Virus genome (UHGV): UHGV-0197950
DNA: 10,010 nt
Direction: 5' to 3' (one strand)
DNA from: a virus
In this document: positions 2,273-10,010 of the stretch, one piece after another
How positions within the stretch are numbered: position 1 is the first letter of the stretch
Layout of the letters: every line of letters starts with the position of its first letter
The notes under the pieces: model-generated
Seen by the model: the letters and a program-made list of their open reading frames with translations, nothing else
The model's database searches: none
Told to the model about the DNA's origin: nothing
Position numbers and translations under genes: made by a program

Positions 2273-2299
2273 AGGGGAGCATATGACATATAAAACAAA

Positions 2300-2319
2300 G
2301 GCGACCGGGGGCGGTCGCC
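2300..2319 (-). terminator. GC-rich perfect hairpin (GGCGACCG-GGGG-CGGTCGCC); possible terminator for leftward transcription from the repressor gene, or for alpA
   Basis: 8-bp perfect stem at 2300-2307 / 2312-2319. On the minus strand it is followed by a U-rich run (CTTTGTTTTA); on the plus strand it lies 28 nt after the alpA stop with no U-tract. Confidence 0.35.
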
Positions 2320-2623
2320 AATGGATACACACTAAACTTGAACGCATCACCAACAATGCCACATTTGCGGCTGGTGGGCAATGTGATCAGTCAGATTTGG
2401 TTCGTTCCAAGGTTTGCAACGAGAGCTTTTTCCTGTGCTCTTTAAGGAATTTCTCAAGAGCAAACGAACAAGGTGCGAATCTTTCTGATTCATGTTCATG
2501 CGCTATATTTTTGCGTCGTCTCTTACGAGTTGGTGATGGTGTTTTGGTTGATTCTGTGTCGCTCATGGTGCTGTCCTGTAAAGCAATGCGCCTGCGTTCC
2601 TCAAACTATGGCGCTGATAGTGG

Positions 2624-2929
2624 CTATTCCTGCTCTTTGACCTTGCGTCGCTGGAGTTCTTCACGCGCGACGGTGACGAGTTGCCCGATCTCCTCGGCGG
2701 CTTTGACTCCGATTTTTTCCACCTGCGCTAGGGCATCGAGCGAAGAAACCAGGAGGTTTTCTCCGCTTCCTTCTGCCTGGCGGCGGGCGATTTCACCGCG
2801 CATGGCGGTTACTATGAATCCGGCGTTGCTTTCACCGTCCAGTTTTACGGATTCCATGCCTTCAATAACATCATGCGGGATCCGAGCTGTCAGTGATTGT
2901 GATTTTGCGTTTTTTGAACCTGTAGCCAT
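2624..2929 (-). CDS. Putative ribbon-helix-helix-type DNA-binding repressor (candidate island immunity/maintenance regulator)
   Basis: 101 aa from ATG (minus) at 2929 with SD GAGAGGA 6 nt upstream: MATGSKNAKSQSLTARIPHDVIEGMESVKLDGESNAGFIVTAMRGEIARRQ..., i.e. an N-terminal beta-strand/helix pattern typical of RHH (Arc/CopG-like) proteins and a charged helical C-terminus. The track start at 2944 is a TTG. Divergent from a region with two palindromic operators. Family assignment is by pattern only. Confidence 0.55.
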   Translation of the reverse strand: MATGSKNAKSQSLTARIPHDVIEGMESVKLDGESNAGFIVTAMRGEIARRQAEGSGENLLVSSLDALAQVEKIGVKAAEEIGQLVTVAREELQRRKVKEQE

Positions 2930-2950
2930 CTGTAATCCTCTCAATGAAAG

Positions 2951-3027
2951 TGTAAGACAATATACACATAAAAAGTCTTACATAAAAGCATTGACATGTA
3001 AGCCACCTATAAATAAAGTTGCTTACA
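2951..3027. promoter_or_regulatory. Divergent control region with two palindromic operators (TGTAAGAC-N16-GTCTTACA and TGTAAGC-N17-GCTTACA) overlapping a TTGACA -35 element
   Basis: Read directly: 2951-2958 tgtaagac / 2975-2982 gtcttaca; 2997-2003 tgtaagc / 3021-3027 gcttaca; TTGACA at 2991-2996 with a -10-like TAAAGT 17 nt downstream (3014-3019) reading towards the + strand gene at 3126. Confidence 0.55.
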
Positions 3028-3125
3028 CCTTGTTAATGCAAGGTGCAGAAACGACGAAACCCCGCACTGTAGGAGCAGTAACGGGGCTTCTAACCACCAA
3101 CGATAGCAAGATTATCGAGGCAGCT

Positions 3126-3329
3126 ATGAGAAATCATACCATACACCCGCAAGGGCGGGACTCGTACAACCTGAATAAATACATCTGGCGTTTTATCGCC
3201 CTGAGCACCGCACAACCGCGCGTGATTCACATCGTGGCCACCAGCGAACAGGAAGCACGCCAGCAATCCCCGGCTGGCTGCGTGATGGTATTCGCCGCCC
3301 GTATTCGTCAGGGGGTGTGCCATGCCTGA
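3126..3329 (+). CDS. Small hypothetical protein (67 aa); first gene of the rightward operon; possibly an Icd-like cell-division-inhibitor-family protein
   Basis: ATG 3126 with GAGG SD 5 nt upstream, in frame with the end of the long 2283-3329 ORF: MRNHTIHPQGRDSYNLNKYIWRFIALSTAQPRVIHIVATSEQEARQQSPAGCVMVFAARIRQGVCHA. The Icd-like label is a recollection, not verified. Confidence 0.45.
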   Translation: MRNHTIHPQGRDSYNLNKYIWRFIALSTAQPRVIHIVATSEQEARQQSPAGCVMVFAARIRQGVCHA

Positions 3330-6925: not shown

Positions 6926-7972
6926 ATGAGTATGGTTGACTTATATTCGCCTACACAGCTTGTGCAGGTGGCTAATGCTGAAGATGTGCAAAAAAAATTA
7001 AATGCGTTGTTTACCAGTTTGTTTTTCACTCGCTCGGTAATGTTTGAATCGAGAGACATTATTCTTGATACGATCGACGATCCAAATATCCCGATCGCGG
7101 CGTTTTGCTCTCCTATGGTGGGCAGTAAAGTTTCACGAGATGAGGGATACGAATCAAAAACAATTCGCCCTGGCTATATGAAACCGAAAAGCAGCATTGA
7201 TCCAAATAAGTTAGCTGTGCGCCCTGCTGGTGTATCACCTGAGCAATACAATGCTTTTGGAGCGCGTAATATTAAAGTTAAACAGGCGATTGTAAATCAG
7301 GCTAAAGCTATTCGTGCACGTATTGAATGGCTTGCCGTTCAGGCAATCACAACGGGGAAAAATATCATTGAGGGCGATGGTATTGAACGTTATGAGCTGG
7401 ACTGGAATATTAAACCACAAAATATCATCACTCAGTCTGGCGGTGCTGAGTGGTCAGGTAAGGATAAAGAAGCTTTTGATCCAAATGATGATATTGAGAG
7501 CTACGCAGAATTTAGTGAGGGCGTCACTAATATTATCATTATGGGCGGTAATGTATGGAAGAAATACCGTTCATTCAGGGCGATAAAAGAGGCTCTGGAT
7601 ACTCGTCGTGGTTCTAATTCCGAACTGGAAACGGCCCTTAAAGACCTTGGTGATTCGGTGAGTTTTAAAGGGTATATGGGCGATGTTGCGATTGTTGTTT
7701 ACAGCGGGCGTTATACCGACGAGGACGGAACTGAAAAATATTTCCTTGATCCTGATTTGATGGTGCTTGGCAATACGGCTCTTCAGGGGATTGTCGCTTA
7801 TGGCGGTATTCAGGATCCGGAGCTAATCCGGATGGGGCTGACTAAAGCCGAACTTGCACCGAAAAACTATATTGTGCCTGGTGATCCGGCTATTGAATAT
7901 GTGCAGACACATTCAGCACCACAGCCAATACCGGCCCGCATCAATCGTTTTGTTACCGTTCGCATTGGCTAA
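6926..7972 (+). CDS. Major capsid protein, phage lambda gpE family
   Basis: Begins MSMVDLYSPTQLV (lambda gpE begins MSMYTTAQLL) and shares long blocks with gpE as recalled: NIITQSGGAEWSGKDKEAFDPNDDIESYA, LDTRRGSNSELETALKDLG, GDVAIVVYSG, MVLGNT, PGDPA. Start may be ATG 6926 or 6932 (AGAGG abuts 6926). Stop TAA 7970-7972. Confidence 0.9.
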   Translation: MSMVDLYSPTQLVQVANAEDVQKKLNALFTSLFFTRSVMFESRDIILDTIDDPNIPIAAFCSPMVGSKVSRDEGYESKTIRPGYMKPKSSIDPNKLAVRPAGVSPEQYNAFGARNIKVKQAIVNQAKAIRARIEWLAVQAITTGKNIIEGDGIERYELDWNIKPQNIITQSGGAEWSGKDKEAFDPNDDIESYAEFSEGVTNIIIMGGNVWKKYRSFRAIKEALDTRRGSNSELETALKDLGDSVSFKGYMGDVAIVVYSGRYTDEDGTEKYFLDPDLMVLGNTALQGIVAYGGIQDPELIRMGLTKAELAPKNYIVPGDPAIEYVQTHSAPQPIPARINRFVTVRIG

Positions 7973-7981
7973 GGGGGAGCA

Positions 7982-8323
7982 ATGGCTACTCATTACACTG
8001 AACTCATGTCTGGCACTGAAGCACTGGTTACTACGCTGGGGATATTTTCAGCCAATAAAGGGGTAATACCTGCGTTTACGCCACTGATGCAGGAAGATGC
8101 AACTGGTGCGCTAGTGGTATGGGATGGAACGAGCGCAGGCAAAGCGGTTTATGTTTCCGCTGTACAAATCGACACAGCGAAAAAAACACAGGCACAGGTT
8201 TATAAGACAGGTGTTTTAAATGTTGATGCTCTGAACTGGCCTGAGTCTGTAAAAGAACTGTCGGCAAAGGTTGCCGCGTTTGTTGGCTCAGGTATTTCTG
8301 TTCAGCCGCTGGCTCGTGTGTAA
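7982..8323 (+). CDS. Head decoration protein, phage lambda gpD family
   Basis: 113 aa with SD AAGGGGGAG; motifs shared with gpD as recalled: TPLM, LVVWDGT, YKTG, WPE, AAFVGSGISV. Lies immediately downstream of the capsid gene (order E then D, reversed relative to lambda). Confidence 0.8.
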   Translation: MATHYTELMSGTEALVTTLGIFSANKGVIPAFTPLMQEDATGALVVWDGTSAGKAVYVSAVQIDTAKKTQAQVYKTGVLNVDALNWPESVKELSAKVAAFVGSGISVQPLARV

Positions 8324-8334
8324 AGGGGGATACA

Positions 8335-8718
8335 ATGCAGAATCATTACAATGACCTTAAGCCAATTGCCGAAATGATGTATCCGGATCCAGCAGTAGAG
8401 GAATTAAAGGCTATTGCTGACAAAATGCGTTTAAGTGAACGCCTTGTTGATATGAATCAGGTGATGGAACTTACTACCCTTAGCCGTCGCACATTGCTAA
8501 ACCTTGAGGCTCGCGGAGAGTTCCCCGAACGCGTACAGGTTACGGAAGGGCGTAAGGCCTGGTATTTAAGTGAAGTGATCGACTGGATAAACAATATTCC
8601 TCGAGCTTCTGAATATTGCCGCGTACCTGTCCCAAAAAAGCCAGATGCGGCGCTATGCCTCAAGATTGAGCGTGTACGTCGCAATGCACGGGATGGTCGC
8701 TATAAGTTGATTGGTTGA
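8335..8718 (+). CDS. AlpA-type HTH DNA-binding protein with N-terminal extension (127 aa); candidate late/packaging regulator
   Basis: SD AAAGGGGGA; C-terminal half has an AlpA-like HTH (MELTTLSRRTLLNLEARGEFPERVQVTEGRKAWYLSEVIDWINN). Sits between the decoration gene and cos. Confidence 0.7.
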   Translation: MQNHYNDLKPIAEMMYPDPAVEELKAIADKMRLSERLVDMNQVMELTTLSRRTLLNLEARGEFPERVQVTEGRKAWYLSEVIDWINNIPRASEYCRVPVPKKPDAALCLKIERVRRNARDGRYKLIG

Positions 8719-8741: not shown

Positions 8742-8810
8742 GGCGGGTCCTTTCCGGCGATCCGGTAGGCTACGGGGCGGCGACCTCGCGGTTTTTCGCT
8801 ATTTATGAGC
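8742..8810. other. Lambda-type cohesive-end site (cosQ/cosN region); cosN 12-nt GGGCGGCGACCT at 8775-8786
   Basis: Island GGCGGGTCCTTTCCGGCGATCCGGTAGGCTACG|GGGCGGCGACCT|CGCGGTTTTTCGCTATTTATGAG versus lambda right end ...CGGGTCCTTTCCGGTGATCCGACAGGTTACG and left end GGGCGGCGACCTCGCGGGTTTTCGCTATTTATGAA as recalled. Identity falls away after about +35, so the cosB region is different. About 145 bp upstream of a Nu1-like gene, as in lambda. Confidence 0.8.
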
Positions 8811-8818
8811 TTTTTCAG

Positions 8819-8833
8819 GGTGGTGGTGGTGGT
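8819..8833. repeat. (GGT)5 trinucleotide tract followed by TTTGTTGTTTG, inside the cosB-equivalent region
   Basis: Read directly: ggtggtggtggtggt at 8819-8833. Downstream are ACACCAACACACCAACC repeats (8877-8893), loosely complementary in composition. Confidence 0.6.
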
Positions 8834-8919
8834 TTTGTTGTTTGCTCTATCTCCATGAATAAAAAGGGAAAGATAACACCAACACACCAACCTGAAACCT
8901 TGACCAAGTTGGGATATTG

Positions 8920-9462
8920 ATGAAATCGCACCTGATGAACAAAAAAACCATGGCGCAAAGCTGCCGGGTAAGTGCTACAGCATTCGACAAGTGGGGAGTG
9001 ACTCCCGTTGAACGTAAAGGCCGTGAGGCGTTTTATGATGTTGCCAGCGTGATAGACAATAGGGTTAACAATGCAATTAGCCAGCTTACAAACGACAAAG
9101 GCGAGATTGATGATGATGAACTCTTACGAGTCAGGATCAGATTACTGACAGCACAGGCGGAGGCGCAGGAACTTAAAAACGAGCGCGATCGCGGTGACGT
9201 GATTGATACAGAGTTTTGCATGTACGCGCTTTCAAAACTGGCGAGTCAGATTTCATCAATCATGGACAGCCTCCCGCTTACTATGCAAAGGAGCTTCCCA
9301 CAGATGACCCCCGTCATGCTGGATGGCCTGAAAAAAGAAGTTGTCAGAGCCTGTAACGCATGCACAAAACTTGATGAAAACATCCCGCGAATGCTGTCCG
9401 ATTATCTGATGGAAACTACCGGAAATGTGCCTGATAAGTTTCAGCCGGATAAAGACAAGTAA
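8920..9462 (+). CDS. Terminase small subunit, lambda Nu1-like
   Basis: Product aligns by eye with lambda Nu1: N-terminus ...NKKTMAQSCRVSATAFDKWGVTPVERKGREAFYDVASVI versus NKKQLADIFGASIRTIQNWQEQGMPVLRGGGKGNEVLYDSAAVI; C-terminal part RLLTAQAEAQELKNERDRGDVIDTEFCMYALSKLASQISSIMDSLPLTMQRSFPQ versus RLTRAQADAQELKNARDSAEVVETAFCTFVLSRIAGEIASILDGLPLSVQRRFPE. Start ambiguous (TTG 8917, ATG 8920, ATG 8935). No TerL gene follows. Confidence 0.85.
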   Translation: MKSHLMNKKTMAQSCRVSATAFDKWGVTPVERKGREAFYDVASVIDNRVNNAISQLTNDKGEIDDDELLRVRIRLLTAQAEAQELKNERDRGDVIDTEFCMYALSKLASQISSIMDSLPLTMQRSFPQMTPVMLDGLKKEVVRACNACTKLDENIPRMLSDYLMETTGNVPDKFQPDKDK

Positions 9463-9480
9463 CGTAGTGCACAATGACCG

Positions 9481-9502
9481 AAGCCAGTTTACTGACTGGC
9501 TT
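9481..9502 (+). terminator. Hairpin (AAGCCAGT-N6-ACTGGCTT) 19 nt after the terS stop; possible terminator or RNA-stability element
   Basis: Perfect 8-bp stem read directly; the downstream sequence is only weakly T-rich (TTCAGCGTTGCG). Confidence 0.3.
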
Positions 9503-9698
9503 TCAGCGTTGCGCTGGTGGGCGTTATGCGTCAGTGATGAACAAAAAACAATCGAAATCGACACCGAAAAATAAAACATCAAGTCATATCAATATATTGC
9601 ATTGGTGGTGATGACGAATAAAAATGCAAAAACTAGCCTTTTTCCGCGATGCTCCCGCCCCGTGGCAGGGCACCCCACAAGGAGGACCCGCCATCACT

Positions 9699-10010
9699 AT
9701 GGAGGCCATGACCATGACCATGACCATGACCGAGACCGAAGCGCTCGGGATAATCCGCAGTATTACCGGAATCAGCCAGCAGGCTGGCGAACAGGAGGCC
9801 ACGCAGCCGGACAGCGTGATAGCCGAAAATTACGCGCGTGTTGTTGCTGAGGTGATGCGCCGTGATGGTATTGAGCTTAACGGCGTGGATATGCGCAACA
9901 TACGAACCAGAGTCCTTGAGTTGCTGGCATACCGTCGCCGTTCTCAACAACGGAGGGAGAGCGCGAAAAGTACTTACCAGTGGAAGAAGCCGGAACGACT
10001 GCGGCGGTAA
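9699..10010 (+). CDS. Hypothetical protein (~103 aa) beginning in a hexanucleotide repeat (MEAMTMTMTMTETE...)
   Basis: ORF ends TAA 10008-10010. Candidate starts are ATG 9699 (SD AAGGAGGA 9679-9686) or ATG 9714 (SD GGAGG 9701-9705). The track start 9624 lies in probable non-coding DNA. No confident family assignment. Confidence 0.5.
   Translation: MEAMTMTMTMTETEALGIIRSITGISQQAGEQEATQPDSVIAENYARVVAEVMRRDGIELNGVDMRNIRTRVLELLAYRRRSQQRRESAKSTYQWKKPERLRR
9707..9730 (+). repeat. (CATGAC)4 hexanucleotide tandem repeat, with a degenerate fifth unit to 9736, at the 5' end of the last gene
   Basis: Read directly: catgac x4 at 9707-9730 then cgagac; encodes MT dipeptide repeats and provides four in-frame ATG codons. 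Confidence 0.7.

Follow-up and report, generated by a model that had tools for sequence, protein, structure and literature searches.

Near the right end of a 10,010-nucleotide stretch of virus genome UHGV-0197950 (hereafter the window), a cos site of phage lambda type is followed by a gene for a Nu1-like small terminase subunit (TerS), and no gene for a large terminase subunit (TerL) comes after it. How might an element with half a terminase and a cos site of its own be packaged? The window is nearly the entire sequence of a phage-inducible chromosomal island (PICI) of the EcCIIHE3034 type, which occupies the cspD–clpS site. An earlier note on this DNA had proposed packaging piracy, in which the island TerS recognises island cosB and recruits the TerL of a lambdoid helper to a shared cosN. 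That proposal is consistent with all of our findings and has comparative support, although the C-terminal conservation that it described proved wrong and TerL recruitment is something that we infer. The reading that we favour, with moderate confidence, is that the island TerS binds an N15-like cosB on the island and brings a gpA-type TerL of the helper to the common lambda-type cosN.

The cos site and the island cosB

The 12-nucleotide sequence GGGCGGCGACCT (positions 8775–8786, plus strand) is identical to the cohesive-end sequence of lambda and corresponds to the island cosN. It occurs once in the window, and the expectation for an exact 12-mer is approximately 0.001 in 2 × 10 kb. Numbered from the first nucleotide of cosN, colinear identity with the ends of lambda and phage 21 (phi21) extends from −32 to +35, that is to say, from the cosQ-side box CGGGTCCTTTCC (8744–8755, plus strand), which is exactly the annotated R4 box of phi21, through cosN to the right flank (+13 to +35, 8787–8809, plus strand), the I2-equivalent of which ends in GCTATTTATGAG. 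Positions 8743–8820 matched the cos regions in 87 records of lambdoid phages, with identities of 88–91% and E values down to 7e-21. In the alignment, the similarity to lambda and phi21 ended after +35 (8809). The exact cosN, the lambda-like cosQ side with its flank of approximately 35 bp, and a Nu1-like TerS gene approximately 145 bp 3′ of cosN had all been claimed before, and all 3 were borne out. The distance from cosN to the terS start codon is 145 bp in the island compared with 190 bp in lambda. The locus resembles the lambda cos-Nu1-A region in its identical cosN, similar cosQ side and +13 to +35 flank, and cos-then-TerS order; by contrast, the lambda R3-I1-R2-R1 sites and the gpA gene are missing from the window.

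The DNA beyond +35 had been described as unrelated to lambda. It has no similarity to lambda or phi21, and no R3-I1-R2-R1 sites were found in the island cosB; nevertheless, it is not an orphan, for it contains an N15 R3-like box. The candidate TerS-binding box (+45 to +69, 8819–8843, plus strand), delineated by a tandem repeat and by alignment with N15, consists of (GGT)5 followed by TTTTGTTGTTT. The 3′ half of the box resembles the N15 R3 site GAGGTTGTTGTTT (N15 bp 48–60), and the island copy lies 9 bp further from cosN. The position of the N15 R3 site was mapped by linker scanning, as cited by Murialdo and Feiss (PMC9026076).

We aligned the intergenic regions of 6 satellites: 3 from E. coli (the window, IHE3034 and O157), an embedded satellite of Enterobacteriaceae, one from Kosakonia and one from Superficieibacter. 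The conserved blocks were the cosQ box, cosN, GCTATTTATGAG, GGTGGTGGT[G/T]TTGTT[G/A]TT, and CAAYACACCMACYTG at approximately +106 to +120. The CGGGTCCTTTCC box is essentially kept in all 6 satellites, from at least 4 genera, with 1–2 substitutions in the copies of O157 and of helper-embedded satellites (HES, described below). The conserved cosB box has the form GGTGGTGGT-TTGTTGTTT, in which TTGTTGTTT is the N15 R3-like core, and its register is constant in the 6 satellites even though their TerS proteins are only 54–58% identical across genera. A second conserved box, CAACACACCAACCTG (+106 to +120, 8880–8894, plus strand), was recognised from the satellite alignment and from an inverted repeat (8813–8825 and 8885–8897), the 3′ arm of which it overlaps. 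Its CAAYACACCMACYTG sequence is retained in the satellites of E. coli, Kosakonia and Superficieibacter and is only weakly recognisable in the embedded satellite L013. The reverse complement of the second box is GT-rich, as is the first box. In lambda, the R3 and R2 boxes are opposed, and the inverted arrangement of the 2 boxes in the island cosB recalls them.

The island TerS and the absence of a large subunit

The island terS gene (8920–9462, plus strand), which RefSeq annotates at the same coordinates as "terminase small subunit", encodes a protein of 180 residues that we assign to the Nu1/gp1 family on the basis of Pfam, phrog_57, BLASTP and multiple alignments. The protein scored 81 bits against the Pfam Phage_Nu1 family (PF07471, cutoff 30), a match that covers residues 64–148 only, and matched the TerS family phrog_57 over residues 1–173 (E value 1.2e-51). 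It is 37% identical to lambda Nu1 (BLASTP, residues 7–167, E value 1e-35), with which it is colinear through residue 180, and 33% identical to phi21 gp1. Its layout comprises a putative N15-type winged helix-turn-helix (HTH) domain (residues 1–56), a conserved central region of the oligomerisation type (residues 64–125), and a variable C-terminal module (residues 126–180) that ends in an island-specific tail of 13 residues, ETTGNVPDKFQPDKDK.

The distribution of similarity along the protein differs from that described in the earlier note, which held that the N-terminus was divergent and that the C-terminal region, which in Nu1 contacts gpA, was well conserved. The identity to lambda Nu1 is 33% in residues 1–56, 41–45% in residues 57–125, and 38% in residues 126–167. 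The N-terminal domain is thus divergent from lambda, yet it is 55% identical to that of N15 gp1, which is the closest phage TerS (47.5% overall). The second half of the description does not hold: the part best conserved with respect to phage TerS proteins is the central region (residues 72–125), in which the motif AQADAQELKN is nearly invariant. The island TerS and N15 gp1 have in common the helix-wing segment AFDKWGVxPVE..GRE.F.DV, and in the multiple alignment both lack an 11-residue insertion of the lambda and phi21 proteins. Judged by these similarities, neither the island cosB nor the DNA-binding domain of its TerS is an orphan, the former being N15 R3-like and the latter N15 gp1-like. 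N15 is also like the island in its R3-like TTGTTGTTT core and in having no site for integration host factor (IHF). The 2 systems differ in that (i) N15 gp1 is followed by the TerL gene gp2; (ii) the N15 cosN is GGGCGGCGTCCG; (iii) the N15 box is 9 bp closer to cosN; and (iv) the C-terminus of N15 gp1 is lambda-like, whereas that of the island TerS is divergent and carries the 13-residue tail.

The ratio of nonsynonymous to synonymous substitution rates (dN/dS) of terS, calculated against the IHE3034 and O157 alleles, is 0.12–0.27, indicating purifying selection. The synonymous divergence dS is 0.08–0.17 in codons 1–125 and approximately 1.0 in codons 126–180. This jump at codon 126 indicates that the putative TerL-binding module is an anciently diverged and exchangeable unit. 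There are 2 main types of C-terminal allele, and the C-terminal segment is a mosaic and the most divergent part among the island alleles. An exchangeable C-terminal module fits adaptation to different partners, and does not prove it.

That no TerL gene follows, as first noted, is confirmed by a genome with a 100%-identical copy of the island, in which terS is followed by a gene for a 94-residue protein, attR and clpS. No TerL gene was found next to TerS in the IHE3034, O157, Kosakonia and Superficieibacter satellites. Genomic TerS homologues at least 54% identical to the window TerS are satellite-borne; they are preceded by a gpE-like gene and lack a gpA-like gene on the downstream side. Among the homologues with at most 43% identity (from Shewanella, Klebsiella, Vibrio, Buttiauxella and others), nearly all have a gpA-like TerL gene immediately behind them, either overlapping or adjoining; 2 short partial matches in this group had no gpA-like gene next to them. 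The order of cos and terS mirrors the left end of lambda, and the locus could on that account be regarded as the functionless cos-Nu1 remnant of an ordinary or decaying lambdoid prophage. We consider this barely credible, given that att sites bound a 10.34-kb island with PICI genes (int, alpA, a D5-type primase gene, and genes for a single-stranded DNA-binding protein (SSB) and gpE-like and gpD-like proteins), that clpS lies directly downstream, and that the cassette, which is never accompanied by TerL, recurs in several genera and with several integrase backbones, its terS having the dN/dS values given above.

Cassette exchange, helpers and the mode of packaging

Across the satellites, cosQ and cosN remain lambda-like, and each type of DNA-binding domain is accompanied by a cosB of the corresponding type. 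This pairing provides the chief comparative evidence that the island TerS reads island cosB. The N15-type TerS pairs with the GT box, and the Rpp-type cassette (described below) pairs with a ACCACCACC cosB. A chimeric TerS of 194 residues (proteins P0099 and P0104), seen on more than 100 contigs, is found in L009–L012, which are PICIs at the phoQ site. By eye, its N-terminal 100 residues have approximately 95% identity to phi21 gp1; its C-terminal half is identical to that of the window TerS, and the 2 parts meet at AQADAQELKN/ERDRGDV. The corresponding cosN is GGGCGTCGACCT, and the cosB is colinear with that of phi21, with boxes at the R3, R2 and R1 positions that resemble those of phi21. The chimera points to recombination between island and phage terS genes. 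In 3 further satellites from IMG/VR, embedded in capsid genes (L047, L048 and L051), the TerS is 73% identical to lambda Nu1, and the capsid and decoration proteins are 98% and 96% identical, respectively, to those of the window at the amino acid level. The combination of window-like head genes with a lambda-type TerS suggests that the TerS/cosB cassette is exchanged independently of the head-gene module. As a separate observation, O157:H7 genomes, such as that of strain ECP19-598 (L016), carry a TerS-type PICI at roxA–phoQ, the attachment site of EcCICFT073. This PICI has a RepA-type helicase rather than a D5-type primase; its cosQ-side flank is unlike that of the window, and the similarity to the window begins only 4 nucleotides before cosN.

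Homologous satellites are often inserted in the capsid gene E of lambdoid prophages, and such capsid-gene insertions have been named HES (preprint 10.1101/2022.07.18.500453). By walking along one IMG/VR contig (L062), we recovered both a prophage and the satellite embedded in it. The prophage has the cosN GGGCGGCGACCT, the CGGGTCCTTTCC box, a lambda-type R3 region, and TerS and TerL proteins 87% and 88% identical, respectively, to those of lambda. In the satellite, which lies 15 kb further downstream in the prophage capsid gene, cosN is unchanged and the flanks (−36 to +35) are nearly identical. Beyond +35, the satellite has the GT box and an N15-type TerS gene without TerL, and its cosB is unrelated to that of the prophage. 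In terms of sequence, this natural pair appears to be the arrangement first proposed for the window, with a cut site common to both partners, recognition that is private and a large subunit that is borrowed. The HES resemble the window in their capE-D-AlpA-cos-TerS module and differ from it in location, the window island being chromosomal (cspD–clpS). The preprint describes an example without terS and gives no TerS analysis.

The abundance of the cassette was estimated with window positions 8800–9200 as the query and a coverage of at least 80%. The cosB together with the N-terminal half of TerS was present in 761 of 5426 complete E. coli genomes (14%), mostly at 90–95% identity, and the genomes with the cassette include O157:H7, O145:H28 and O26 strains. 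By the same method, the CFT073 cosB-rppA segment was found in 97 genomes, a comparison that is indicative only because the divergent RppC type was left out.

The likeness to N15 allows for another explanation, that the island mimics the cos site of an N15-type helper whose own TerS recognises the R3-like box, in which case the island TerS would be redundant or would mainly interfere. The N15 R3-like core in cosB and the position of N15 gp1 as the closest phage TerS (47.5%) speak for it. We nonetheless judge it quite improbable: the island cosN is that of lambda and not the GGGCGGCGTCCG of N15, the box is displaced by 9 bp and extended by (GGT)n, and terS is intact and under purifying selection in a cassette carried by 761 genomes. 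Moreover, in the embedded pairs L062 and L121, the prophage has a lambda-type TerS and a lambda-type cosB, not N15-type ones.

The position of the cassette raises a different possibility. The island EcCICFT073, which we located in NC_004431, is syntenic with the window: capsid and decoration genes, a small open reading frame (ORF), cos1, rppA (144 residues), an inverted cos2 and the same last gene. The island terS gene is located at the exact position of rppA, directly 3′ of cos with its private cosB. Both islands have lambda-like cosQ and cosN, a private cosB, a gene for a small winged-HTH protein and no TerL. By contrast, Rpp has a different oligomerisation part, lacks the TerS C-terminus and binds the helper TerS, and the cosB box GGTGGTGGT-TTGTTGTTT of the window corresponds to ...ACCACCACC... 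in EcCICFT073. Rpp proteins have 135–153 residues and, according to structural work, a TerS-like DNA-binding domain, and they lack the C-terminal 30–40 residues of TerS (PMC9026076). They act by binding the helper TerS, which stays essential (PMC6739421, PMC9026076). The (GGT)5 array of the TerS-type cosB lies at +45 to +59 (8819–8833), and the EcCICFT073 Rpp-type cosB has its reverse complement ACCACCACC at +55 to +63 (L006 25607–25623). This segment, ACCACCACC, reportedly does not vary between Rpp-type islands. In both types, the R3 position is occupied by one and the same trinucleotide array, but in opposite orientations.

An Rpp-like mode would have the island and helper TerS proteins form mixed oligomers through the central region, so that the complex is retargeted to island cosB and the helper TerS brings TerL. 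It would be compatible with the location of terS at the Rpp position in a syntenic island, with the match of RppA to the TerS family phrog_57 over residues 7–47 only, which agrees with the published TerS-like DNA-binding domain of Rpp, with the strong conservation of the central region (residues 72–125, including AQADAQELKN), which could support hetero-oligomers, and with the poor conservation of the island TerS C-terminal segment. In L062, moreover, the central regions of the prophage and satellite TerS proteins are approximately 65% identical (by eye), which makes mixed oligomers, as expected of an Rpp-like element, possible. However, the missing C-terminal residues of Rpp are present in the island TerS, where the C-terminus is full-length and colinear, retains the LDExIP...Y motif and is under purifying selection. 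Comparison of TerS with RppA gave a BLASTP E value of 1.4 and an hhalign probability of 0.6%, and there is no similarity outside the HTH, which supports the initial view that the strategy of the island is distinct from that of Rpp. We regard the Rpp-like mode as the strongest rival to the favoured reading, albeit an unlikely one.

The favoured reading, in which the island TerS recruits a helper TerL directly, implies the following course of events. After induction and replication, the island TerS would bind island cosB through its N15 gp1-like winged-helix domain, at the GT-rich box (+45 to +69) and possibly also at the inverted second box (+106 to +120). The central and C-terminal parts of TerS would assemble with the gpA-type TerL of a co-resident lambda-like helper, which would nick the lambda-identical cosN at 8775–8786, and the lambda-like cosQ side would serve termination. 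Island concatemers would then be packaged from cos to cos into helper-built particles, and 4 units of 10.34 kb (41.4 kb) would fit a lambda-sized head. Because the helper TerS would read a different cosB, the island would be independent of the helper TerS and would compete for TerL, thereby interfering with the helper.

Several observations weigh against this reading. The part of the C-terminus that corresponds to the gpA-binding segment of Nu1 is colinear and retains LDExIP..L..Y, but is only 35–38% identical to those of lambda and N15, and this poor conservation of the putative TerL-binding segment leaves TerL recruitment at the level of a deduction. A search of a phage collection for a TerS close to the C-terminal half of the island protein, which might have named the helper, gave a best match of 54% (PhiR5_1), and with no phage TerS above this value no helper can be named. 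An AlphaFold2 model of the TerS, built from an alignment of 27 sequences, is mediocre (predicted local distance difference test score 68) and gave no significant fold match; its secondary-structure pattern fits a winged HTH, Foldseek against the PDB returned weak matches to the winged-HTH proteins MerR, RacA and GlnR (E values of at least 0.17), and a PDB sequence search with TerS returned chance matches only. In the island cosB, the R3-like box is displaced by 9 bp relative to N15, and no IHF consensus (with at most 1 mismatch) was found, although the same search recovered I1 in the lambda control. Two points come from earlier work: in the HES preprint (10.1101/2022.07.18.500453), the role of the embedding prophage as helper of its satellite is itself presumed, and no transfer of EcCIIHE3034 or EcCI18098 was seen when their native strains were induced with mitomycin C (PMC6092414).

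A broader proposal, which we advance with slightly more doubt than confidence, is that these cassettes constitute a third packaging strategy of enterobacterial cos-type satellites, beside cos mimicry and Rpp. A complete satellite TerS may bypass the helper TerS and capture a gpA-type TerL directly, at a chimeric cos composed of helper cosQ and cosN and a private cosB. Modular DNA-binding-domain/cosB units (N15-, phi21- and lambda-type) and C-terminal units, shuffled at the AQADAQELKN joint, would allow rapid switching of both site specificity and the helper TerL partner.

The island, its relatives and its significance

A 100%-identical copy of the island is present in E. coli CE0032f between cspD/yljB and clpS. 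The att core ATGATAGTTAT occurs in 2 exact copies in L001 (6054 and 16396; 0.01 expected), the spacing of which gives an island of 10.34 kb; attL lies at 353–363 of the window (plus strand), and attR approximately 690 bp past the window end. The gene order begins with a tyrosine integrase, AlpA, Icd-like remnants, DUF4222, a D5-type primase-helicase and the SSB, and continues with a gpE-like capsid protein, a gpD-like decoration protein, a second AlpA-like HTH protein, the cos-TerS cassette and a conserved 94-residue protein. The island has the features of Gram-negative PICIs, namely an int-alpA-primase/rep core, a size of approximately 10 kb, att repeats, a specific insertion site, and neither lysis nor tail genes. 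The att core, insertion site, size and 412-residue integrase match those listed for EcCIIHE3034 and EcCI18098 (supplementary table of PMC6092414), with 97% DNA identity over int-alpA.

The cassette of EcCIIHE3034 is similar to that of the window, with a TerS 87% identical and a nearly identical cosB. The window differs from EcCIIHE3034 in its C-terminal TerS module, which is a different allele (61% identity over residues 126–167; dS approximately 1), and in its second cos site (cos2), which is inverted and degenerate (9640–9692, minus strand). The window cos2 consists of a cosN remnant, GGGCGGGAGCAT (9649–9660, 4 mismatches), with a cosQ-like CGGGTCCTCC nearby. An intact cos2 is found in EcCICFT073 (L006 26297–26308) and in EcCIIHE3034, and the cos2 of L009 is degenerate in the same way as that of the window. 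Deletion of cos2 in EcCICFT073 reportedly lowers transfer (PMC6092414).

The genes for the gpE-like major capsid and gpD-like decoration proteins (6932–8323) are not accompanied by portal, protease or scaffold genes. Their homologues in EcCICFT073 are reported to be dispensable for both transfer and interference (PMC6092414). A capsid-forming PICI (cf-PICI) was considered and rejected, as cf-PICIs encode TerL, portal, protease and HNH proteins; in the window, these and head-tail connectors are absent, and only the gpE-like and gpD-like genes and TerS are present. Directly 5′ of cos lies the gene for the second AlpA-like HTH protein (8335–8718, plus strand; 127 residues), assigned by Pfam PF05930 (E value 1.4e-8), phrog_2790 and synteny, and common to the embedded satellites L013–L015. 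Its DNA had no BLASTN match in the IHE3034, CFT073 and O157 islands, in which a hypothetical protein of 137 residues is annotated at that position. The protein may serve as a regulator of the packaging module or as a second excision factor. The island as a whole is a mosaic, the capsid-decoration-AlpA-like module of which is of the HES type.

Downstream of terS, the intergenic hairpin reported at the outset was found again (9480–9503, plus strand), with a 10-bp stem and a 4-nucleotide loop. It has no U tract, was missed by a scan for intrinsic terminators, has a modest folding z-score (−2.3) and is hardly persuasive as a terminator; the surrounding sequence (9150–9542) is 98.7% identical in L009. 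The last island gene, which encodes the conserved 94-residue protein (9726–10010, plus strand; phrog_1561, E value 7.5e-51), has approximately 78% DNA identity to its CFT073, IHE3034 and O157 homologues and is the last gene in EcCICFT073 too. A hexanucleotide repeat, (CCATGA)4.3 (9706–9731), at the start of this ORF can be read either as Met-Thr repeats or as alternative ATG starts. The lengths of near-identical islands differ by exactly 6 bp (1705, 1711 and 1717 bp with the same query), and L009 has fewer (CCATGA) copies, suggesting repeat-number variation between islands. A 348-residue ORF elsewhere in the window (2283–3329) is probably no gene: on the other strand of this stretch, RefSeq has Icd-like fragments together with a YlcI/YnfO gene.

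The novelty implied by the earlier note has to be lowered, in that the island belongs to a catalogued PICI type and terS was listed in 2018: EcCIIHE3034 and EcCI18098 were said to "encode TerS" (Fillol-Salom et al. 2018, PMC6092414). No mechanistic study of an EcCIIHE3034-type cos-TerS cassette was found in the searchable literature. The principle of a satellite TerS working with a helper TerL is established for the pac-type Staphylococcus aureus pathogenicity islands (SaPIs; cited in PMC6739421). The SaPI TerS-S is like the reading favoured here in being a satellite small terminase thought to pair with the helper TerL and thus to redirect packaging (PMC6739421). It differs from the window TerS in that the SaPI system is of the headful/pac type, Ppi-assisted and based on an unrelated TerS family, whereas the window is of the cos type with a chimeric cos. 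The cos-type version, the N15-like specificity on a lambda cosQ/cosN, the modularity of the cassettes and their abundance appear to be undescribed in the searchable literature.

The only demonstrated route of preferential packaging in Gram-negative cos-type islands is Rpp, which needs the helper TerS. If the favoured reading is true, a sizeable group of islands of medical relevance, present in 14% of complete E. coli genomes, captures the helper TerL directly. This would alter the range of phages that can be helpers and the way in which the islands interfere with them, and would explain how packaging specificity is kept separate from that of the helper despite a common cut site. The mix-and-match of cosB and DNA-binding domains offers a natural test bed for cosB reading by the Nu1 family, including the poorly understood single-R3 mode of N15, and the modularity of the cassettes suggests parts for the engineering of orthogonal cos packaging.

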